From positions 1 to 64,000 of IMG/VR virus record IMGVR_UViG_3300048575_000392: a stretch of 64,000 nt of DNA. One strand, given 5' to 3'. A program made the position numbers and the translations under genes. Positions within the stretch are counted from its first letter, which is position 1, and the number at the start of each line of letters is the position of its first letter. Under the pieces are notes generated by a model, which was not told the DNA's origin, did not search any database, and saw only the letters and a program-made list of their open reading frames with translations. Positions 1-63,545 of the stretch are shown one piece after another. The stretch comes from a virus (Duplodnaviria > Caudoviricetes).

Positions 1-453
1 TCATATAACAGCGCTCCCGGCCGGCGTGGCCGCGGCCTGAGGCGCGGGCTCCTTCACAACATCACCCGCGACGGTCTCGGCCACCCCCTCGACACCCTCC
101 GCCGTCACCTCACCGCCGGAGGTCTTGGAGGTCAGGAGCCCTATGACGAACTTCACGAGAGCGAGGACAAGCTGTACCAAGAGCTGATAGGCGAGCTCGA
201 CGACAGCCAAGGCGACGAGGCCTATCACGACGCCGGCCGCGAGCTTCAGGAGCGCGGAGGCCGGCACGAAGTAGTCGGCGAAGAAGCCGCCGAAGACCGA
301 GGCGACGCCGACGATGAGGCAGAAAACGCCGGAGAGCACCGGCACGAGCCAGCCCGGCAACTTGGCGTTCTTGGTCAACGCCTTAAACCACTCGAGGGCG
401 CCCGTCGCGGCCAGCGCGACGAGTGCGAGAAGAACGAAGAGCTTCGAGAACAT
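1..453 (-). CDS. Holin-like membrane protein
   Basis: 3-4 hydrophobic helices and an acidic/Ala-rich C-tail; GGAGG RBS before the ATG at 453; directly downstream of the endolysin. Confidence 0.6.
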   Translation of the reverse strand: MFSKLFVLLALVALAATGALEWFKALTKNAKLPGWLVPVLSGVFCLIVGVASVFGGFFADYFVPASALLKLAAGVVIGLVALAVVELAYQLLVQLVLALVKFVIGLLTSKTSGGEVTAEGVEGVAETVAGDVVKEPAPQAAATPAGSAVI

Positions 454-506
454 GATGACCTCCATTGCCCCGCGGGGCGAGGCGGGGTTCTCCCCGCCGT
501 AGATTC

Positions 507-1172
507 CTAGAGAATGAAGTGGACCCACTTCCGGCTCACGGAGCCCTGCTCCTTGGTGATCCGGATGAAGTCCCTGAACGGAACGATCACGTCGTTGCCG
601 CGCTGATCGCGGTAGCCGGTCCTATAGTCGCCGAAGGGGTCGTCTACGATCATGGAGACCATGAGGTCGAGGTTGATGTCGCGGGCGGTCTTCGCCTGGA
701 GGATGTCCTCCTGTGCCGACTCGAAGCCGCAGACGCAGACGACGTGGGAGATTCCCTTCTCCTCCCCCTGGGCGTTCTTGTAGGGCCAGACGCCGGACAT
801 AACGCACGCCTTCTTGGAGATGATCGAGAGGATCACGTCCTGAAGCAGGGAGACCCACGAGAACCGGTTAACCTCGCGACCGATCCAGAGGTTCGTCCCC
901 AGGGCCCGCATCGGCGCGAGCTCGTTCGGAGGGACCCCGTTCTTGAACTCGGTCGGGTAGTCGCGCTGATAGGCTTCCTTGACGCGCGGATCGGTCCTGA
1001 TAAACTCGGTGAGAACGTCCTCCTGCTGCCTGTCTCCGCAGTCCGGGAGCTCAACGCCGGAGTAGAGGAGCGCCATGACCATCGAGGTCGTCGCGCAGGT
1101 TCCCATGGGGTCGATAGCGTTGTTCCGCTGAGTGTGATAGTCCTTCCCCTCGGATATGTTGATTCTGACCAT
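507..1172 (-). CDS. Endolysin, C39/papain-like cysteine peptidase
   Basis: YHTQRNN..GTCATTS (Gln/Cys), SHVVCVCGF (His), IVDDPFG (Asp) pattern; next to the holin; RBS GGAGG before the ATG at 1172. Confidence 0.7.
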   Translation of the reverse strand: MVRINISEGKDYHTQRNNAIDPMGTCATTSMVMALLYSGVELPDCGDRQQEDVLTEFIRTDPRVKEAYQRDYPTEFKNGVPPNELAPMRALGTNLWIGREVNRFSWVSLLQDVILSIISKKACVMSGVWPYKNAQGEEKGISHVVCVCGFESAQEDILQAKTARDINLDLMVSMIVDDPFGDYRTGYRDQRGNDVIVPFRDFIRITKEQGSVSRKWVHFIL

Positions 1173-1192
1173 ATAGCCTCCCTCGGGAAGTC

Positions 1193-1972
1193 CTAGCCGA
1201 TCGTGGCGGACAGGTACTCCTCGAACTCGTTCTCCAATGCCTTGCACTCCGCCTCGGTCTTGAGCGAGACCGCCCGCGCATTCCAGAACAGGTCGGAGAG
1301 GACCTCTCGGATCTCCGGCGTGATGCGCTGGTTCTCCTTGTAGACCCGGCTCCTGTCGATGAGGCGGCCGCGGTACATGTCGTTGAGGGCGTCCGTGGCA
1401 CGCTGCATGATCTCGTCGACCTTGTTGTCGACGTAGGCCCGGAATTCCTGCTCGTCCTTCATCGCATAGTGGTTCTCACGGTACGCGACGCGAATGAAGT
1501 CGCGGAGGTCGTCGTAGATCGCCTTCACGCAGAGTTTGTACGAACGGTAGTCCTCGTGGTCGACGATGTTCCGATCCTCAAGGCGCCCCGCTGCTATCTC
1601 CTCGTCGAGGAGGTGTAGGAAGGCCTTCTGGACCATCCCACGGAGGTCGGCGCCGCGACTCTCTGCATACTTCATCTGTTCGGGCATTACGCCGTCGTGA
1701 AGGTCGTGGACGGCGTTGATCATCTCGGCTTGTTTTTTCAATACCATCACAATGTCTCTTCCGTGGACACATGCGGCGTGGGGGGTCGTTTTCTCGGTAC
1801 CGTCCTTCCCGAGGAACTCGACCCCCTCAGTTGAAACCCTCTTGAATCGCGCTTTCTTGATCAGGTACACAATAGCCAGAACGAAGGCCCAGGTGGCGGA
1901 CACGAACACGACCGCAAACCCGGCGACCTCCCAAATGCTCTTCTTCGCCAGTAGATTCCAGAGCGCTTCCAT
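1193..1972 (-). CDS. Membrane-anchored protein of the lysis module (one N-terminal TM helix)
   Basis: MEALWNLL start with RBS; hydrophobic stretch VAGFAVVFVSATWAFVLAIVYLI followed by a helical soluble domain. Confidence 0.6.
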   Translation of the reverse strand: MEALWNLLAKKSIWEVAGFAVVFVSATWAFVLAIVYLIKKARFKRVSTEGVEFLGKDGTEKTTPHAACVHGRDIVMVLKKQAEMINAVHDLHDGVMPEQMKYAESRGADLRGMVQKAFLHLLDEEIAAGRLEDRNIVDHEDYRSYKLCVKAIYDDLRDFIRVAYRENHYAMKDEQEFRAYVDNKVDEIMQRATDALNDMYRGRLIDRSRVYKENQRITPEIREVLSDLFWNARAVSLKTEAECKALENEFEEYLSATIG

Positions 1973-1998
1973 GCTCCGAACCTCCCCTTGTGAATCGC

Positions 1999-2053
1999 AA
2001 AAAGAAAAGGGCCGCACGCCCCGAAGGGTATGCGGCCCGAGTCTTTCGGCACC
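1999..2053 (-). terminator. Conserved leader plus intrinsic terminator, copy 1 (before the lysis genes)
   Basis: GGTGCCGAAAGACTC-GGGCCGCATAC-CCTTCGGGG-CGTGCGGCCC-TTTTCTTTTT on the minus strand; identical to 26587-26635. Confidence 0.85.
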
Positions 2054-2066
2054 AAAGTATGAATCC

Positions 2067-2096
2067 ACTATAGGCACAAGGAAGAACGCGCGTCAA
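2067..2096 (-). promoter_or_regulatory. sigma70-like promoter upstream of leader/terminator copy 1
   Basis: TTGACG-18 nt-TATAGT; the RT stop codon lies inside the -35 box. Confidence 0.7.
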
Positions 2097-3094
2097 CGTC
2101 TGAATCGCTCGGAGGACGCTTTCAGGCTCTCCCAGAGCATCTTTTCCACGAAGCCGTGCGAGGCCGTTCCTTTCGCATGGCCAACCCATGAACCTATCGA
2201 CTTCAGGAACTTTTCGTCCTTCATCTTCCCTTTCTTCCATGCCCGGCACTTCTTCCTCATCCGGACAAGGCTCGACTTCTTGATGAGCCGGTTTTTCGGG
2301 AAGATGCGATAGCCTACGAACTCAATTCCATCTCTCGTGGCTCCGATCTGCGTCTTCCCGTTCAGCTTGAGCGCGAGCTCCTCACCGAGAAAGTGCTCGA
2401 TTTCCTCCTGGAGCGCGCGCAGCCGCGGCGTCGACGAGTCGAGGATGATGAAGTCGTCCATGTAGCGGAGGTAGTATTTCACGCCAAGCCGAACCTTGAG
2501 ATAAAAATCCAGTTCGTGGAGGTAGACGTTCGCGAAAAGCTGCGACATGAGGTTCCCTATCGGAACACCCGAGCCTTGAGCGCTGTCGAGTATCTTGTCG
2601 ATGATTTCCAGAACGTCCTCGTCGTCGAGATACCTACGAATAATCGTTTTCAGAATTGGGATGTTGATCGACTGGAAGAACTTCGTTACGTCGCACTTGA
2701 GATAGCGGTCAGTTCCCGGCTTCCCGATGAAGTACGAAAGGCGATTCGCGGCCGCCAGAGAGCCCTTGCCCTTTCGGCAGGCGTAGGAGTCCGGAATCAT
2801 CAGGCGTTCAAAGATAGGCTCGACGATCCGCGAGACCGCGTGCTGGACGATTCTGTCACGGAACGGAAGCGCTGAAATCAACCGCTCCTTGGGCTCCCAC
2901 ACCTTAAATTGCCTATAGGGACCGACCTGGTATGTTTTCCAGATTAGTTCGTTCTGGAGCACAATCAGGTTCTCCTCCAGGTTGTACCCAAAGCTGAGAA
3001 CTTGACCACGATACCGCTTTTGTTGTCGCGCCTGAAGATAGGACTGGTACAAATTCTCATAATCATAGACGAGCGGATATAGATTGCCTGACAT
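2093..3094 (-). CDS. DGR reverse transcriptase
   Basis: RT motifs PFRDRIVQHA, YACRKGKG, LKCDVTKFF, GVPIGNLMSQLFAN (SQ form typical of DGR RTs), YLRYMDD; no maturase or endonuclease tail. Confidence 0.96.
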   Translation of the reverse strand: MSGNLYPLVYDYENLYQSYLQARQQKRYRGQVLSFGYNLEENLIVLQNELIWKTYQVGPYRQFKVWEPKERLISALPFRDRIVQHAVSRIVEPIFERLMIPDSYACRKGKGSLAAANRLSYFIGKPGTDRYLKCDVTKFFQSINIPILKTIIRRYLDDEDVLEIIDKILDSAQGSGVPIGNLMSQLFANVYLHELDFYLKVRLGVKYYLRYMDDFIILDSSTPRLRALQEEIEHFLGEELALKLNGKTQIGATRDGIEFVGYRIFPKNRLIKKSSLVRMRKKCRAWKKGKMKDEKFLKSIGSWVGHAKGTASHGFVEKMLWESLKASSERFRR

Positions 3095-3133
3095 GATGCG
3101 AATCCTTTCGCGAGATTTACAAATTGTTTTTAC

Positions 3134-3164
3134 AAAAAAGCGGAGGCCCCCGCGGGGGCTCCGC
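3134..3164 (-). terminator. Intrinsic terminator between the TR-spacer and the RT gene
   Basis: GCGGAGCCCCC-GC-GGGGGCCTCCGC followed by TTTTTT on the minus strand. Confidence 0.7.
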
Positions 3165-3368
3165 CAACGTAGTTCCGCTTCGGAGCCTATCGCATCTCGC
3201 GAAGACGATCGGTTCCTCGACTAGGGGCCTGATCTGACGAATCGACAGGGCTTATCGCCCCCTTCTCTCCCGGCCATGCCGGGCGCCCTCCCGCGCCGCC
3301 TACGGCGTCGCGTTTGGGCCGTCACTGCGCGAGCGGACCGTGATCCTCCGCGACTTATACCCGAATCC

Positions 3369-3475
3369 TCACAGGCCAGGCGGCACCCGATGTTCGTGTT
3401 CACGTTCCACGGATAGTTGTTCAAATTGACGCACCGCGGACCACAGTGCACGCCCTCGTTCCAGCCGCCGCCGGC
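3369..3475 (-). ncRNA. DGR template repeat (TR)
   Basis: 107-bp repeat of 3939-4045, rich in AAC codons; starts just after the avd stop codon. Confidence 0.95.
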
Positions 3476-3480
3476 TTCCA

Positions 3481-3879
3481 TCAGGCTCCCTTGATGAGGC
3501 CGCCTATCATGCGGCCGATCTCGGCCACGCTCTTCGCAGCTGTCTCATAGCTCCGTGGCGCGAGATATTTTCTAGTTCGCGCGTGCCGCAGGAAAAACCT
3601 CATCATCTCGAGCTGCACGTCGACCTCATACCAGCCAGCCCGCTTCGCGGACGATTTGTTGGTCTTGATGATCGTCTTCAGCATCTCATACGATAAGTTC
3701 TTCATCTGCGACACGAGCGCCAGCCTTTCCGATTTGGGGAACCGGTCCAGGATAGGAAACAGCCAATCCACGAAATCCTCGACTTTTTGGAATAGCTTGA
3801 GGGTTTCCACCCCATAGACGGCTTTGTTACTCATCGGCGCCTTCGCGGCGTTGCTATCCCCTTCCTGAACCACCGACAC
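3481..3879 (-). CDS. avd: DGR accessory variability determinant (four-helix bundle)
   Basis: LDRFPKSERLAL and C-terminal EIGRMIGGLIK motif; located between target and TR. Confidence 0.93.
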   Translation of the reverse strand: MSVVQEGDSNAAKAPMSNKAVYGVETLKLFQKVEDFVDWLFPILDRFPKSERLALVSQMKNLSYEMLKTIIKTNKSSAKRAGWYEVDVQLEMMRFFLRHARTRKYLAPRSYETAAKSVAEIGRMIGGLIKGA

Positions 3880-3923
3880 ACCCCACCTCCGGAAAGACAG
3901 ATATTCAGATCACAGAGAACAGG

Positions 3924-3938
3924 CGCGGCTACGCCGCG
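3924..3938 (-). promoter_or_regulatory. DGR target-recognition hairpin/cruciform downstream of VR
   Basis: CGCGGC-GTA-GCCGCG, a 6-bp GC stem with a GNA loop, immediately 3' of the end of TR/VR identity. Confidence 0.7.
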
Positions 3939-5122
3939 TCACAGGCCAGGCGGCACCCGACGAACGTGTACACGTTCCACGGATAGTAGCTCAAATTGAC
4001 GCACCGCGGACCACAGTGCACGCCCTCGTTCCAGCCGCCGCCGGCAATGAGCGCCGATAGACCGATGTTGTTCGGGCCGTAGAGGTCGCCCATGCCTGCG
4101 CCGAGTACATCCTGCCAGCCCCACGAGGTGGAGTCCTGCCGGATCGACATCTCGTCGAGCCAGTCGTAGACGTTGCCCACGCAGTCCACGAGGTTGTAGG
4201 CAGAGATGGCGTAGGGTTTGATACCGGAGGCCGCGTCGTAGGCGCCGGTCGAAGCGTTGACCCTCACCCCCGTGCGCGTGCGCGCGGTATTGGTCGTCTT
4301 CGTCCATCCGTAGTTGTCGGCCGCATCCTCGCCCTCCGGATTCCCGAAGGCGCCCTTGATCCACTCGGCGTAGGAAAGCATCCGCTTCGCGCTCCGGGTA
4401 GCGAGCTCGGCGAAGTTGAACCAGCAGAGGCCTTCCGTTCCGGTGACCGGGAGCTGGCCGTACTTCGACTGGAGCTTCCCCGTCGCCACGTGGAGGCCGT
4501 TCGTGCCTGACATGAACGTAACCGCCTCGGCAGCCGAGGACTGGTAGATATCGACCCAGAGCTGGCCGATCTTCACCATGCCCTCGGGGCTGCACTTCGG
4601 CCGGTTCTTGAGATCCCAGACCGAGTTCGGCACGATGCCCGTGGTGACGTTGTTCTTCCAGATCGTGGAGCCGGAACCGAACTTCGTCCCCTCGGAGTCG
4701 ACGGGAATCCAGAGACCGTCGGAGCTCACCTTGCGAATGTGTCCGTAGTGGAAGCCACCGATCTTGCGCGAGGAATCCGCCGAGTAGCCCGCGGGGAACG
4801 TCGAGTTGAGCGAGAGCTTGATGACGCCGTTCGTTCCGTCGTCGCAAAGATAGACGTAGTAGTCCGTCCCGACGGCGAAGGTTCCCGTGTCGAGGTCCGC
4901 CCCGGAGAGCTCGAGGTCGGCGTCCTTCACCACGAAAATCTTCCAGGCCGAGTTCTTCAGCGTGATGATCGTGTCCTGCTTCAGCAGGAGCTTGTTTTCC
5001 GTGTAGGCGAACGGATTCTTCTTCTCGAGGTAGTTCGCTCCCGGAGCCTTCACGTCGTGGAACTGGGCGATCGAAGCGATCGTCGCATCATCCACGGCAT
5101 CCTTGACTTTGTATACCGCCAT
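3929..5122 (-). CDS. DGR target; Mtd-like receptor-binding protein with a C-type-lectin-fold C-terminus
   Basis: GGFHYG N-domain, DCVGNVYDW and GGGWN..GxR C-terminus carrying the VR; lies after the fibre genes. Confidence 0.9.
   Translation of the reverse strand: MAVYKVKDAVDDATIASIAQFHDVKAPGANYLEKKNPFAYTENKLLLKQDTIITLKNSAWKIFVVKDADLELSGADLDTGTFAVGTDYYVYLCDDGTNGVIKLSLNSTFPAGYSADSSRKIGGFHYGHIRKVSSDGLWIPVDSEGTKFGSGSTIWKNNVTTGIVPNSVWDLKNRPKCSPEGMVKIGQLWVDIYQSSAAEAVTFMSGTNGLHVATGKLQSKYGQLPVTGTEGLCWFNFAELATRSAKRMLSYAEWIKGAFGNPEGEDAADNYGWTKTTNTARTRTGVRVNASTGAYDAASGIKPYAISAYNLVDCVGNVYDWLDEMSIRQDSTSWGWQDVLGAGMGDLYGPNNIGLSALIAGGGWNEGVHCGPRCVNLSYYPWNVYTFVGCRLACDAA
3939..4045 (-). repeat. DGR variable repeat (VR) at the 3' end of the target gene
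   Basis: Codon changes relative to TR: AAC>AGC, AAC>TAC (twice), AAC>TTC, ATC>GTC. Confidence 0.95.
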
Positions 5123-5134
5123 GCTGCCTTCTCC

Positions 5135-5404
5135 TTAAAGGTTCCCAATCATGGACGCGATCTCGTCGTCCGTGAGCCCCGAGAGAACGAAGGCGGAATT
5201 CGGGTCCGTCTTCGCCTCGAAATCGTCCGGCGTCTGCTCCTCCGCCGACTTCTTCACGCCAGCCTTGAGCACGAGCATCGTCTTCGTGGCGTTGAGGGCC
5301 TCTAGGCGGGCCTTGAGCGCCTTGCTTCCGCCGTTGTTGATCGCGTACTGATAGGCGTTCAGCCAATCCTCGCGCGTGTTCATGTTGTCCGGTATTCCTA
5401 CCAT
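5135..5404 (-). CDS. Small fibre/receptor-binding-protein accessory protein
   Basis: 89-aa ORF with RBS between fibre and DGR target; function by position only. Confidence 0.5.
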   Translation of the reverse strand: MVGIPDNMNTREDWLNAYQYAINNGGSKALKARLEALNATKTMLVLKAGVKKSAEEQTPDDFEAKTDPNSAFVLSGLTDDEIASMIGNL

Positions 5405-22953: not shown

Positions 22954-23391
22954 CTATGCCTTCTCGTAGCCGGGGACCTGGGCGAGGTAGTCGAAGTCGG
23001 CCCCCTCTACGGAGGCCACCCCCTTCTCGTCGAAGTCGATCGGCTGGCCGCTGGCCGCGAAGACGCGCTGGCCGGCCATGGCCTTGTTCTTGATCTTCCC
23101 GCTCGAGGCCTTCTTGGCGGCCGCGGGGGTCGTCTGGTCGGTGGCCGGCGTGGTGGCGGCGGCCTGGTCGTTCTGAACGGCAGCCTGAGCCTCTCCGCTC
23201 GCCGGGGCGCCGGTATCGGCCGCCTGATCCTGCCCCTCCGCGGGGGTCGTCTGGTCGGTGGCCGGCGTGGTGGCGGCGGCCTGGTCGTTCTGAACGGCAG
23301 CCTGAGCCTCTCCGCTCGCCGGGGCGCCGGTATCGGCCGCCTGATCCTGCCCCTCCGCGGGGGTCGTCTGGTCGGTGGTTCCGCGTGCCAT
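22954..23391 (-). CDS. Head-region protein with 39-aa tandem repeats
   Basis: A/Q/T/D-rich repeated N-terminus and a small globular C-terminus. Confidence 0.7.
   Translation of the reverse strand: MARGTTDQTTPAEGQDQAADTGAPASGEAQAAVQNDQAAATTPATDQTTPAEGQDQAADTGAPASGEAQAAVQNDQAAATTPATDQTTPAAAKKASSGKIKNKAMAGQRVFAASGQPIDFDEKGVASVEGADFDYLAQVPGYEKA
23121..23378. repeat. 117-bp perfect tandem repeat, 2.2 copies
   Basis: Unit starts at 23121, 23238 and 23355 (partial); in frame (39 codons). Confidence 0.95.
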
Positions 23392-26580: not shown

Positions 26581-26635
26581 AAAACAAAAAGGGCCGCACG
26601 CCCCGAAGGGTATGCGGCCCGAGTCTTTCGGCACC
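26581..26635 (-). terminator. Conserved leader plus intrinsic terminator, copy 2 (before the head/tail operon)
   Basis: 49 bp identical to copy 1; U-tract TTTTTGTTTT. Confidence 0.85.
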
Positions 26636-32174: not shown

Positions 32175-35100
32175 CTCACGATCAGCTTTTTGCCGTGATT
32201 CGCCTTCTTGAAGGCCTCTTCCTTGAACGCCTCGATGCTCGTCTCATCCATCCGGCCGAAGAATCCGGGCCGGTCATACTGTTTCAAGTAGGCCGCCTTG
32301 GCCTCCTCGGGGCCGTCGAAGCCGAACATGATCTTGTCCTCGTCGTAGTCCCCGGTCACCGGGTCGTTCTGATGGACCACGAAGACCTTCTCCGACTCGG
32401 TATCGGGGCCGATGTAGCAGTCGAGGTGGTCCTTATCCTTCCCGACGGTCCCTCGGATGTACCCGTAGTCGAAGTGCATCTTCGTTTCCCACTCGTGGCC
32501 GTCCTTGTCGACGCCGCGGCGGACGCTGCCCTTCCGGTTCTCGATGCTGATGTCCATGCCCTGGAGCGTCGTCCTGCCCTGGAGCTTATGCCCGCTCCAG
32601 GTCTCGGCCTTCTCTAGGCGGAGAGCCTTGAGGAGCTCGTCGTCCTCAACGAAGAAACGCTCGACGAGGGGGAGGACCTTCGCCTCGTAGACCTCCTGCT
32701 TGGGATGATTCCCGCGCTTGTTCCAGGTTTCCTGGTATTCGGCCTGGGCTTCGCGCTTCGTGGCGAAGAACTGCTCGAGCGCGCGGGCGAAGCACTCGCA
32801 GGTACGGTTCTGGTAATCCGAGGTCTGGGCCGTGGCCATGTTCGAGCGGAACGTCCGCGCGATCTGGCCGGGGAGCGAGGACCAATCGTCCGAGGCGTAA
32901 AAGTGGCGCCCTCCCCGCGTGCCGAGGTAGTTGTCCATGAAGTGCGCCCACTCGTGCGCGAGCGTGAACCCGAAGCCGGTTTCGCCGTTCTGCATGGTGA
33001 CGCCGATCGCATGATGGGCAGGAAAGTAGACGCCGGCCGCGTTCCGGGCGTGCATGAGCACCTTCCCGGAGTGGCTCACCTTGAGGCCGAAGCCTTTGGC
33101 CATGGAGGAGCGGTTCCCATAGATGCTGTATACCGCGTCCAGGGCGGTCTTGATGTCCTGGATCTCCTTCGTGTTGATCGCGTCGCCATTCTGGCGCTTC
33201 ACGAGCACGCCGTACTCGTCCAGGAGGTCCTTCCTCGTCCCCTTGTCGCCGTAGGCCGTCTCCTGCCCCTTGGCATAGGCGGAATAGTTCTCCTCGATCT
33301 GGATGTTCATGTCGGAGAGCTTCTGCTTCATGTCGACGACGGCCTCTCGGATAGGCTTCCACCTCGCCGAGCCCTGCACGTCGAGAAGGGCGGAGGCCAT
33401 GGAAAGCGTCGTCCTCATGGCCTTGTTCTCTCCGAGCATCCTCACGGAGGTCTTCTTGAGCCTCATGCCGGAATAGAGCTTCGCCTGCTTTTCGTCGTAC
33501 TCCTTCGCTCGGACCTTCGCCCGCTTCAGGTAGTAGTCCTGCATCGCAGCCAGGACATCGACCCCGACTCGGGCGTAAAGCACGCCCAAGGAAGCCTTCC
33601 CGTCGCCAAGGCGCACCATGTAGTCGCCGTCGCCGAGCTTCACGGCCTCGACGCGGTTCCCCGAGCTGTCGAAGTACCTGTCGTCGATTCGGGGTATCCA
33701 GCCAGGCGCGGGCTTCCCCAGAATATCCTTCTCGGAGGCGAGGCTGATCTTGACGGGGATCGCATCCCGGAAGTCGAGGTACTCCACCTTGTCGCCCTTC
33801 ACGCGCCGCGGCTCGAAGGTGTAGGGCTCCGGAGGCCGCTCCTCCAGCTTCGCGCCGAAGAGCTGGGCCTCGGTGGCGGCCCGCGTCTCGGGCGAGGCCT
33901 TGGCCATGAGGGCGGCCACTTTGTCGGGTTCCCTCTCAGGGATAATCTCCTTGATGTCCTCGGGCTTCACGGCGAGCATCTCCCTGTCCGCGAGGACGTG
34001 GGACACGCCGCCGGCGAAGTAGCTGATCTTCCCGATGGCCTTCTTACCGTTCTTCCCCTTGAACGACACCTTGGCGCCGTTCTTGAGCTGGGCGAGGAGC
34101 TTCTGGCGCCAGAGGGCCTCCTCGACCTCCGCCTCGGCGAACATGTCGAACTGCACCCCGAGGGGGGTGTCTTTCTTGGCCTCCGCGGGAAGGACCCACA
34201 CGGTCGTCTCGAAGCGCGTCCCGTCCCTCGTCACGAAGACCTTCTTCGGTACCAGCTTCGGGTTCCTGCGCGATTTCTCCAGCATGGGGATGATGAAAAG
34301 GGCCTTCCTGAGCGACTCCGACTCTTGCAAGTCGCTATTAGCGGCGGTATACTCTGAGGTGGAGGGTCTGGAAATGCCTAACATCGAATCCAAAGACATG
34401 GACTTCTTCGAGCGCGAGGACGTGCCCTTCGCCCGCGACAACGCCTCCCGGAAGTGCTTCCGCGTCTTCTCCGACAGCTCCTTGAAGGAATCCCCGATCA
34501 CCCTCGCCGACTTGATGGTGAACGGCCGCGCGATCTCGAAGGACGAGGCCCTGCGGTTGGCGAAAGCCTCCGGAGACTGACTCGCCGCCCACGCTTCCTG
34601 ATACAGCGCTATCTGTGCGCCCCCGACCAATCGAGTGATCTTGTCGTTCTTCGGCTCATCCTTCAGCTCCCGCCACACCTCATAGAACACGTGCCCTTCG
34701 CTCTTGGCCTCGGCCATCGCCTTCGTGGTGAGCTGGACCTCGGATATCATCCCATTCGGTAGCTTCACGTTCATGTTGATGTCACGGTACCCGACCGGCG
34801 AAGGCGTGGCGAAGTTGTTCTTCAGTCTCATCACCCGCGGGTCCGCCATGAAGAACTCCACGGCGGCCGCCATGGATTCCAGCCCGTCGAATATCAGGGT
34901 ATGGCCGTCGAAGTCGTAGACCTGGGAGGCGTCGGGGGCGCAGTCCTCGCGCATCTTCTCCTCAACGCGGCCGCGGTCCTTCAGCTTGTCCCGAGACTGC
35001 ACTTCGAGGGCCCCGAGCTTCTTCGCGGCCTCTTCGACGGAGGCCTTGAACCCCGCCCTGGCGTCCTCCGCGAGGCGGTAGAGCTCCTCGATATCCTTGG

Positions 35101-61817: not shown

Positions 61818-62212
61818 GCAGCTACCCTCCTGGCAGCGGCCGCCGGGACGAGGTATCCCACGGGCTCTCCGTCGTCTACGACCTTGAGGCCGTAGTAGTT
61901 GATGAAGTCCTCAAAGGACACCTGCGTGAACGAATCGGGATCGGCCCCATCGGGGAAAATAGAGGCCTCGAGGCGGTCCCCGATCCAGACAATGCCCCAG
62001 TGGTCGTGTTCGGTCAGCCAGGCCCAGGCCAGATGTACGCTGACCATCCCGTAAACGATGCTGGCGCGGGTGGCGCTCATGACGCGGAGGAAATCCAGCT
62101 TCGGGAATCGCTTCCTCCAGTCGACCGACCCCTTGCCGAGCTCGGGCGCGGGCTTGATTTCGATGGAGACAGACGCTGCTTGCTCGCGCTCGTCTCCGGC
62201 TTGTATACTCAA
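61814..62212 (-). CDS. Hypothetical protein
   Basis: RBS AGGAG; GTGA overlap with yqaJ. Confidence 0.5.
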   Translation of the reverse strand: MSIQAGDEREQAASVSIEIKPAPELGKGSVDWRKRFPKLDFLRVMSATRASIVYGMVSVHLAWAWLTEHDHWGIVWIGDRLEASIFPDGADPDSFTQVSFEDFINYYGLKVVDDGEPVGYLVPAAAARRVAA

Positions 62213-62267
62213 AGTAGGCTCCTTATCCGGATTGCGGTTTCCAGGCCTTTGGTCCGGGTGGGAATCT

Positions 62268-62287
62268 GGCCCCTCGAAAGAGGGGCC
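62268..62287. promoter_or_regulatory. 8-bp GC hairpin (GAAA/TTTC loop) downstream of the second VR-like end
   Basis: GGCCCCTC-GAAA-GAGGGGCC; could be a DGR cruciform or a plus-strand terminator (T-tract follows on +). Confidence 0.5.
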
Positions 62288-62324
62288 TTTCTTTTCAGAT
62301 CCACAGATATGCAGATGGTCAGAT

Positions 62325-63287
62325 TCACAGGAGAAAAGCGGGGCGAAGGCCGATGAAGCTGCTCACGAGCGACCGGCGGTCGCTCAGGTTCAGAGCCGCG
62401 AGCCCATCGAGCGCGCCACTGCTCCAGCTGCCACCCCGGAGCGGAAGCCGCTCGCCGTAGTTGCGAACGAACAGGCCTCCGGACATCTCCGAGAACATCG
62501 ACTTCGCCGCGGGCTCGATCATCATCCTCGCCATCCTCTCGCGGGTGGCCTGGTCGAGCTTCCTATACGAGTCCGAGAGCTCCAGGTCCTCGATATCGCC
62601 GACGTAGGCATAGCCATCGTCGCGGTCATCCGCGGCGCCTTTGGGGTTCGGCTCGGAGAAATTGGTCACCTCAGCCGAGAGAACCGGATCGTCTCCGTCC
62701 GCGTCGAAGCAGGCGCCCTGGAACGGCCAGTTGGCCTCGGGAAGCGCGTAGTCGTTACCGTTCGGGAAGAACAACTTCCCATCCACGATCTTCAGACCGT
62801 CGACCCACTCCCACCAGCCAGAGCGATCGAAGTACTTCTGAAGGCCGTGCTTCGTGACGTAGTAGGCCGCGGCCGCCCAGTCCCAACCGCTCGTGAGGTG
62901 CCAGCCCTTGCCCTTGGCGATGCAGGCAGCGCGCGAGTCGTCGAAATCGATGTCATACTGCGGCTTCTCGTCGGGCAGCGAGTACGCGCGGCCGCTTTTC
63001 ACCATGGCCTGGCAGTGGCCGATGAACAGCTCGCTCTTCTCCTGGCCGTCCACGATGAAGGCCGGGAAGGTCCCCGTGCCCAGGGCGGGATCGATCTCCT
63101 CGCACTGGAACTTCGGGATTACCAGCATGTGGGACGGGTTGTCCCGATCGTCCCGTAGCACCGTCACGTGGCCGTCCGTCTCCTTCTCGACCCGCTCCCG
63201 CAGAGCGTCGCGAACCAGAACCGTCGGGGCCTCTTTCTTGTCTTCTTTCATCGCTCTCTCCTTCCCAGTTTTTTGTACGCATCCCAA
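62325..63287 (-). CDS. Second C-type-lectin-fold (FGE-sulfatase-like) protein with a VR-like C-terminus
   Basis: GKGWHLTS, EWVDG, ERLPLRGGSW..G..G.AALNL..RS..S..IGLRPAF; NNC codons at variable positions. Confidence 0.85.
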   Translation of the reverse strand: MGCVQKTGKERAMKEDKKEAPTVLVRDALRERVEKETDGHVTVLRDDRDNPSHMLVIPKFQCEEIDPALGTGTFPAFIVDGQEKSELFIGHCQAMVKSGRAYSLPDEKPQYDIDFDDSRAACIAKGKGWHLTSGWDWAAAAYYVTKHGLQKYFDRSGWWEWVDGLKIVDGKLFFPNGNDYALPEANWPFQGACFDADGDDPVLSAEVTNFSEPNPKGAADDRDDGYAYVGDIEDLELSDSYRKLDQATRERMARMMIEPAAKSMFSEMSGGLFVRNYGERLPLRGGSWSSGALDGLAALNLSDRRSLVSSFIGLRPAFLL

Positions 63288-63302
63288 CAGATGCGCATGT
63301 TC

Positions 63303-63545
63303 TTAGTCCGTTACGGCGTCCTTCGCCTTGTCCATGATCGCGTCTATGGCTTCGGGCGCCAGAAGCTCGTAGATCGACTTCCCATTGAGGAGGATGTCGG
63401 AGTCCTCGAAGTAGCCGCCGTCAGACGGGTCTCCGGGATCTCCGTGCCGGTTGTACATAGTCCCCGGCGTCGGCGGCTCCCAGTCGCCCGAGACCTCGAA
63501 ATCGAAGCCCTCGTGCGTGACGGTGACCGTCTTCTTCACTGTCAC
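63303..63545 (-). CDS. Hypothetical acidic protein
   Basis: GTGA overlap start; G.PGDP..G motif. Confidence 0.5.
   Translation of the reverse strand: MTVKKTVTVTHEGFDFEVSGDWEPPTPGTMYNRHGDPGDPSDGGYFEDSDILLNGKSIYELLAPEAIDAIMDKAKDAVTD

Follow-up and report, generated by a model that had tools for sequence, protein, structure and literature searches.

How does a gene in the early region of a phage come to end in what looks like the variable region (VR) of a DGR, when the phage's only DGR lies at the other end of the sequence and carries a different type of target? The window analysed here is the first 64 kb of a 76,144-bp IMG/VR provirus record, and the genes discussed are all on its minus strand. 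Near the right end of the window, the original prediction had described an open reading frame whose last codons align in register with the resident TR, six NNC codons among them, and are followed by pentamers and a hairpin, and each of these features is present where it was placed. The early gene and its target-like end comprise the following features.

62325-63251, minus strand: gene for a TaqVP-like (CLec/FGE-fold) DGR variable protein of 308 aa, recognised from the ORF and RBS, homologues, a family profile and AF2/Foldseek
62337-62449, minus strand: VR2, a 113-nt block colinear with TaqVP-type TRs, defined by the frame pattern shared between the window and the TRs and VRs of relatives
About 62356-62423, minus strand: adenine-mutable span of VR2
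62337-62354, minus strand: IMH-like GC-rich 3′ end of VR2, ATCGGCCTTCGCCCCGCT, identical in the TRs and VRs of relatives
62296-62324, minus strand: four ATCTG pentamers at exact 8-bp spacing (62296, 62304, 62312 and 62320), directly after the TGA stop (62325-62327)
62268-62287, no strand assigned: GC hairpin of 8 pairs (7 GC) with a 4-nt loop, terminator-like on the plus strand

The open reading frame spans 62325-63287 on the minus strand, and the ATG at 63251 is the likelier start, since GGAAGGAGAG lies upstream of it and the resulting 308 aa equal the length of P0001, a relative with 91% identity. The neighbouring genes encode an ANT/KilAC antirepressor, a YqaJ exonuclease and an SMC-like ATPase, which places the gene in the early/recombination region. 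The protein itself has no Pfam match, even at an E-value of 10, and belongs to phrog_2889, a PHROG without assigned function. It has 87 homologues, the more distant of which carry PF03781 (FGE-sulfatase). A profile of 23 family members matches PDB 5VF4 (TaqVP) over its full length (E = 2e-67), and the AlphaFold (AF2) model of the protein (pLDDT 89.8) matches 5VF4 in Foldseek (E = 9e-28, TM 0.82), so that profile, model and structural search all give the C-type lectin/FGE-subtype fold of DGR variable proteins. In our alignment of the family (A2), the close homologues (~305 aa) lack an insert of ~55 aa that is present in the 360-370-aa members. The early-gene protein is thus a compact subtype, while the paralogues adjacent to cassettes have the insert, and the absence of the insert is probably why Pfam misses the protein. 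The early gene therefore belongs to a bona fide DGR variable-protein family, and by homology its product is predicted to be a variable ligand-binding module.

The conserved position in early regions and the lack of an obvious signal peptide at the N-terminus, as judged by eye, are compatible with an intracellular role and suggestive of one. The protein could also be virion-associated, because in relatives the same TR also diversifies a full-length paralogue encoded near the tail genes. Bearing on location as well, two Mu-like orthologues (P0006 and P0007, from L002 and L005, in alignment A2) are called with a 40-aa N-terminal extension that holds a hydrophobic stretch and may be either a mis-called start or a membrane anchor. 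A contig from a public sequencing run (X4) joins window position 62286 to 63364 with 96 other letters between them; resting on a 36-nt side at 85% likeness, this joint would come from a relative that lacks the entire variable-protein gene or carries other sequence in its place, and is a weak hint that the gene is a dispensable insert with the hairpin as its border.

NNC codons are common in a GC-rich genome, so those of VR2 are weak evidence when taken alone, and their significance comes from the family as a whole. Across 22 homologues, the last ~37 codons form a fixed scaffold interrupted by hypervariable positions. The C-terminal invariant frame of alignment A2 reads RNYGERLPxRGGxWxxGAxAGLxxLxLxxRRSxVxxxIGxRPAF, where x is variable, and the x columns differ freely even in otherwise near-identical pairs. 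The TRs of relatives encode Asn (AAC) at exactly these columns. Homology between TR and VR stops directly after the IMH-like end at 62337-62354, whose GC-rich sequence GGCCTTCGCCCCGCT is common to the TRs and VRs of relatives; a boundary of this kind, where TR/VR homology ends, is the IMH/IMH* boundary as defined for prophage DGRs (PMC5758913).

Signs of diversification are also found between close relatives of the gene. In a nucleotide comparison with the closest relative (P0001, on contig L003), identity is 95.1% over the gene body (40/816 differences) but 82.4% over the last 36 codons (19/108 differences, with 10 nonsynonymous codon changes), a 3.6-fold excess of differences in the VR. The stretch itself was sought in public runs, which are stored as contigs, and is absent from all of them (best word share 0.18). 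However, a 314-nt contig from another sample (run X3) matches 62151-62355 with 4 differences and 62424-62464 with 2 differences, making it ~98% identical on both sides, whereas the intervening 62356-62423, exactly the adenine-mutable span of VR2, is of the same length but diverged. Flanks this similar around a different VR core point to recent diversification in the VR2 lineage.

What wrote these regions can be seen in relatives. All close homologues lie in early regions, either between Bro/ANT and YqaJ-SMC-RecT genes (L003, L004 and L010) or among the Gam/GemA/Mor genes of Mu-like prophages (L005 and L007). No TR or RT lies within 10 kb of these close homologues (L002-L010 and L012-L014), while many distant homologues have a TR 400-900 nt downstream. 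We counted TR-VR mismatches over the 113-nt block as those at adenines and those at non-adenines. In the first relative, a frame-pattern scan of the metagenome holding L003 recovered a contig with a VR and a TR (L099), and this TR differs from the L003 early gene at 15 adenines and no other positions. Because of this perfect adenine-only match, the two separate contigs probably belong to one phage. In the second, one contig of a spirochaete MAG (JAEZST010000011) carries both the early gene L013 (61% identical) and, 25.7 kb away, the cassette L053. That cassette consists of a TaqVP-like paralogue, bAvd, TR and RT, located behind tape-measure and baseplate genes, and its TR has 14/0 (adenine/non-adenine) mismatches to the early gene and 14/1 to the adjacent VR. 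In the third, a Rectinemataceae MAG, the TR on contig C461 (TR_G002) has 16/0 mismatches to its adjacent VR and 11/2 to the early gene L012 on another contig. The binomial probabilities that the mismatches fall on adenines to this extent are 8e-11, 4e-10 and 5e-6 for the three relatives. By comparison of these sequences, then, three relatives have an early-gene orthologue that serves their own TaqVP-type cassette as a remote target, and the 15/0, 14/0 and 11/2 counts make the orthologues non-adjacent prophage targets in the sense of the published definition (PMC5758913).

Two observations concern the TaqVP-type TRs themselves. The TRs of L053 (11533-11645) and L099 (minus strand) differ at only 4/113 positions, although one prophage is Mu-like and the other lambdoid-like and their early-gene proteins are 61% identical, which suggests that the TaqVP-type cassette moves between phage backbones and overwrites the local VR. 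Another contig (L100, positions 25-137; Ga0272446_1037576) holds a TR-type copy, with TR-type flanks on both sides, that equals the L099 TR except for four AAC-to-AGC changes in the last Asn codons; this copy is an allele of the TR, or else a TR into which mutagenised cDNA was itself incorporated.

The DGR that is present in the window, ~58 kb from the early gene, is of another type.

2122-5158, minus strand: resident Mtd-type DGR module, delimited by Pfam, the TR/VR1 repeat and the limits of homology with L103 and L105
2093-3094, minus strand: RT (PF00078), by Pfam
3369-3475, minus strand: TR, repeated in VR1
3481-3879, minus strand: bAvd (PF22296), by Pfam
3898-3925, minus strand: periodic CTG/ATCTG repeats (CCTG, CTCTG, ATCTG, ATCTG) with spacings of 7, 7 and 8, after the VR1 stop
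3929-5122, minus strand: Mtd-like target, by Pfam
3939-4045, minus strand: VR1, repeated in the TR, inside the Mtd-like target

The resident TR and VR1 are 94% identical and differ at TR adenines only. VR2 does align in register with the same TR, as had been noted, and the six AAC codons of the TR face AGC, AGC, GAC, CTC, AGC and TTC. However, only 58/105 bases are identical, and the mismatches fall at 36 non-adenine and 11 adenine positions of the TR. Thirty-six non-adenine mismatches in 105 nt rule out the resident TR as the VR2 template, in agreement with the original prediction, and the resident module is on this sequence evidence non-cognate for VR2. We ran the proposed BLASTn check for another AAC-rich template and added an adenine-aware scan, and neither found another TR in the whole 76,144-bp record; a TR differing from VR2 at adenines only is thus absent from the record. 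Searches by tblastn and Pfam likewise found no second RT or Avd and one copy of each target, so the one RT and one bAvd of the element are those of the non-cognate Mtd-type module. The suggestion that VR2 borrows this RT and Avd in trans finds no support, there being no cognate TR in the 76-kb record for them to use. Among other repeats in the window is a perfect tandem duplication at 23121-23354, two 100% identical copies of a 117-nt unit in a region of large minus-strand ORFs.

The two VRs of the window also share a signal beyond the coding sequence. The pattern ATCTGNNNATCTG occurs in the window only after the VR2 stop, where the four predicted pentamers lie, and after the VR1 stop (3898-3910), where a like signal had been pointed out; 0.09 matches are expected, and none of 100 shuffles reached 4 matches. 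With [AT]TCTG as the unit, the pattern likewise occurs only at these two places in the whole 76-kb record. We inspected 60 nt of sequence behind the stop at ~70 family loci. At most of them it contains 2-4 copies of (A/T)TCTG with 7-8 bp spacing, and a GC hairpin whose loop is GATA, GAGA or GGTA usually comes next. Counted over 38 nt after the stop, targets verified by a TR (n = 45) have a mean of 1.69 TCTG, with at least 2 copies in 64%, against 0.11 and 0.6% after the stops of other ORFs (n = 2,154) and 0.07 and 2% after TRs (n = 45). The enrichment after verified targets has a Fisher's test value of 6e-45 before any phylogenetic correction, and the distances between CTG units peak at 7 (35 cases), 8 (20) and 14 (10). 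In spirochaete phages, the repeats are found behind remote VRs as well as adjacent ones. In the Mtd-type targets L103-L129, where match ends and reading frames are unreliable, TCTG repeats are clear only in L126 and L112. In the 91% relative L003 the pentamers are missing, owing to a 30-nt gap that falls between two TGA triplets. The VR of L003 nevertheless differs from its TR at adenines alone, and the repeats are therefore either not strictly required or recently lost there.

Since the repeats lie beyond the end of the TR/VR likeness, and are present at VRs and absent at TRs, they suggest by inference from sequence a role in marking the VR as the recipient. A search of DGR papers for an ATCTG/TCTG element returned only a primer and no description of a periodic element, and the repeats may be new. 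As a tentative proposal, which we would put at about one chance in three, (A/T)TCTG repeats of 2-4 units at 7-8 bp, starting from the stop, would be an undescribed target-side element that tells VR from TR across phyla, including at remote early targets that lack the canonical GRNA hairpin, and the compact TaqVP-like proteins would form a group of DGR-diversified phage proteins encoded elsewhere than in the structural module. The 8-bp GC hairpin that had been predicted after the stop of the early gene (62268-62287) supplies VR2 with a downstream GC inverted repeat, although its loop orientation is atypical relative to GRNA: the loop is TTTC on the sense strand of the gene, and GAAA with a T-run on the opposite strand. 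This hairpin also stands behind the L003 and L012 orthologues, which are demonstrably diversified, so this orientation is evidently tolerated or the hairpin is a terminator.

Comparison of the two ends of the DGR locus with other phages offers an explanation for the missing template. Downstream of the RT, the flank at 34-2044 (minus strand) is 83-85% identical by blastn to the flank of the TaqVP-type contig L099, whose positions 1735-3805 match it up to ~50 nt from the RT stop, and this forms the right boundary of the exchanged module. Beyond that point, L099 and the resident cassette have little in common: identity is 46% between the RTs and 30% between the Avds, and L099 has a TaqVP-like target where the resident cassette has an Mtd-like one. 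Conversely, in the phages with relatives of the resident cassette (L103, which has terminal repeats, L105, L126 and others) homology is confined to window 2122-5158, and L103 and L105 are phages otherwise unrelated to the source phage. Five records with a resident-type cassette were tested for an early-gene homologue, and it is encoded in 0/5. A flank shared with L099 around a cassette that is not, and that is instead shared with unrelated phages, argues for exchange of a DGR module of ~3 kb. L099 breaks off within its target gene, so the left boundary would be placed from L103 and L105 only. At the right edge of the exchanged module, within the stretch matched by L099, lies a 55-nt hairpin/terminator unit (1999-2053) that recurs with 96% identity at window 26581-26635 and is also found at L099:3758-3805 and L093:227-281.

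We thus favour, at a probability of roughly two in three, the reading that VR2 is an orphan left by cassette replacement, in which the early gene has kept a VR written by a former template. The early gene would encode a single-domain C-type-lectin (FGE-subtype) ligand-binding protein of the TaqVP family whose C-terminal ~37 codons are a DGR VR. In the ancestor, VR2 would have been rewritten by mutagenic retrohoming, as appears still to happen in the three relatives, from a TR in the phage's own TaqVP-type cassette (target paralogue, bAvd, TR and RT) at the tail end, tens of kilobases off. Recombination at the same genomic position would then have replaced this cassette with a non-orthologous Mtd-type module, whose TR is too different to template VR2. 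VR2 would retain its target-side signals, namely the scaffold, the GC-rich IMH-like end, the four ATCTG repeats and the hairpin, with the frame intact, but with no donor its sequence would be frozen unless another element supplied a compatible cassette. Both the direction of the event, a replacement in the source lineage, and the present inactivity of VR2 are parts of this scheme that we infer. Of the two options that the original prediction had offered, target of a second DGR or relic of a lost cassette, the general claim is borne out by the 5VF4 family, the adenine-only TR matches in relatives and the absence of a cognate cassette from 76 kb, and the non-orthologous Mtd-type module at the cassette position favours the second.

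Some observations do not fit easily with an orphan. The provirus record is 87% complete by CheckV estimate, so a cognate TR could act in trans; the gene and its cis signals are intact, with four perfect ATCTG units and no sign of decay; and the run X3 contig points to diversification that is recent. The foreign TR closest to VR2, that of L099, has 14 adenine-type and 9 non-adenine mismatches to it, which makes VR2 a member of the same TR class but of a different allele, and 4 of the 9 non-adenine differences are states also found in TR_G002, as expected of a distinct TR allele rather than of drift after orphaning.

These points give some weight to the alternative that VR2 is still active, served in trans by a cognate TaqVP-type TR, RT and Avd elsewhere in the host chromosome, such as in another prophage resident there, or in provirus sequence that the record does not cover. 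The components of a DGR work in trans, and published cases include targets that are non-adjacent or remote (PMC5758913). More than one family member can occur in a spirochaete genome, as in G003 with L013, L053 and L054, and TaqVP-type TRs that differ by as little as those of L053 and L099 between unrelated prophages make cross-service conceivable; in addition, the frame and all cis elements of VR2 are intact, and the ~98% identical relative has a different VR core. However, no such TR is present in the 76-kb record, and frame-pattern scans found no cognate TR for VR2 in IMG/VR and, in the JGI metagenomes, only that of the relative L099 with its 9 non-adenine mismatches. In addition, a target served solely by another element would not be co-inherited with the phage, following an argument made for prophage DGRs (PMC5758913). 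We consider continued activity in trans unlikely, at perhaps one chance in several, and retain cassette replacement as the better account.

Diversification of VR2 by the resident Mtd-type DGR through relaxed homology is far less probable. The two VRs do align in register, with six shared AAC/NNC positions and the same kind of ATCTG repeats, and TRs from the two types of cassette share ~75% identity over 87 nt. Against this, real TR-VR pairs of the family show 0-2 non-adenine mismatches where VR2 and the resident TR have their 36, the 3′ IMH-like ends are unrelated (GGGTGCCGCCTGGCC versus GGCCTTCGCCCCGCT), and past homing would have left the non-adenine sequence of the resident TR in VR2, where it is absent; the mismatches and the unrelated ends together contradict the proposal. 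An early gene with no relation to DGRs, an ordinary lectin-fold paralogue whose NNC codons reflect GC3 bias, would account for the lack of a Pfam match to the protein itself and for codons that are common in a GC-rich genome, but is refuted by the full-length profile match to a solved DGR variable protein and by the adenine-only TR matches of three relatives (binomial p 8e-11 to 5e-6), and agrees no better with the VR-specific ATCTG repeats or the 3.6-fold excess of differences in the VR.

Remote targets escape large DGR surveys, which are confined to the surroundings of the RT (PMC8144416). The family described here is a whole subfamily of phage DGR targets in the early regions of lambdoid-like and Mu-like spirochaete prophages, and it broadens phage diversification beyond tail fibres. 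VR2 itself would be a natural case of a cassette swap stranding a target, in which DGR cassettes move as ~3-kb modules and VRs can outlive their templates. ATCTG repeats that are specific to VRs and absent at TRs are a testable candidate for how recipient and donor are discriminated wherever IMH and IMH* are identical (PMC5758913). Non-adjacent prophage targets as such were known; what is added is the early-region target subfamily, the exchange of a cassette that would have stranded one member, and the periodic repeat element.

Among known systems, the closest is TaqVP, the variable protein of a Thermus aquaticus prophage DGR (5VF4). TaqVP is monomeric with a single-domain CLec/FGE fold, and its C-terminal variable residues form a solvent-exposed binding site (PMC6328139). 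The early-gene protein resembles it in the single-domain fold, the C-terminal VR of ~40 aa and homology over the full length. It is ~70 aa shorter, lacking the insert, and is encoded in the early region; whereas TaqVP adjoins an avd-TR-RT cassette, the early gene lacks a cognate TR, and the only DGR is ~58 kb away. For prophages with non-adjacent targets, Wu et al. (2018, PMC5758913) described a second target that is usually <50 kb from the RT and uses the same TR. This is the situation in our relatives (L013/L053, L003/L099 and L012/L093), but not at VR2: the targets of Wu et al. show A-to-N differences only, and VR2 does not, its cassette apparently having been exchanged. Orphaned VRs are not described in the papers that we searched.

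The ends of the VRs can be compared with BPP-1 Mtd (Guo et al., 2011, PMC3240598), where a GC-rich VR end is likewise followed by a GC stem of 7-10 bp with a 4-nt loop. The IMH tail of BPP-1 holds looser CTG repeats (GTCTGTGACCACCTGATTCTTGAG) before a GAAA hairpin, and these lie inside the coding IMH, while VR2 has four exact ATCTG units at 8 bp after the stop. The hairpin loop of VR2 is TTTC on the sense strand versus GRNA in BPP-1, in which a CTTT loop nearly abolished homing (PMC3240598). The BPP-1 record (L102) also has a second "variable region 2" annotated at 33229-33558 in the early gene bbp36, far from the DGR, which is a parallel in position. Lastly, Treponema denticola TvpA (PDB 2Y3C; PMC4891356) shares with the early-gene family the spirochaete lineage, the FGE-type CLec fold and the use of one TR for several dispersed targets. 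TvpA, a chromosomal lipoprotein, resembles the early-gene protein only weakly in structure (Foldseek E = 0.02), whereas the early-gene family lies in the early regions of prophages and lacks a lipobox.
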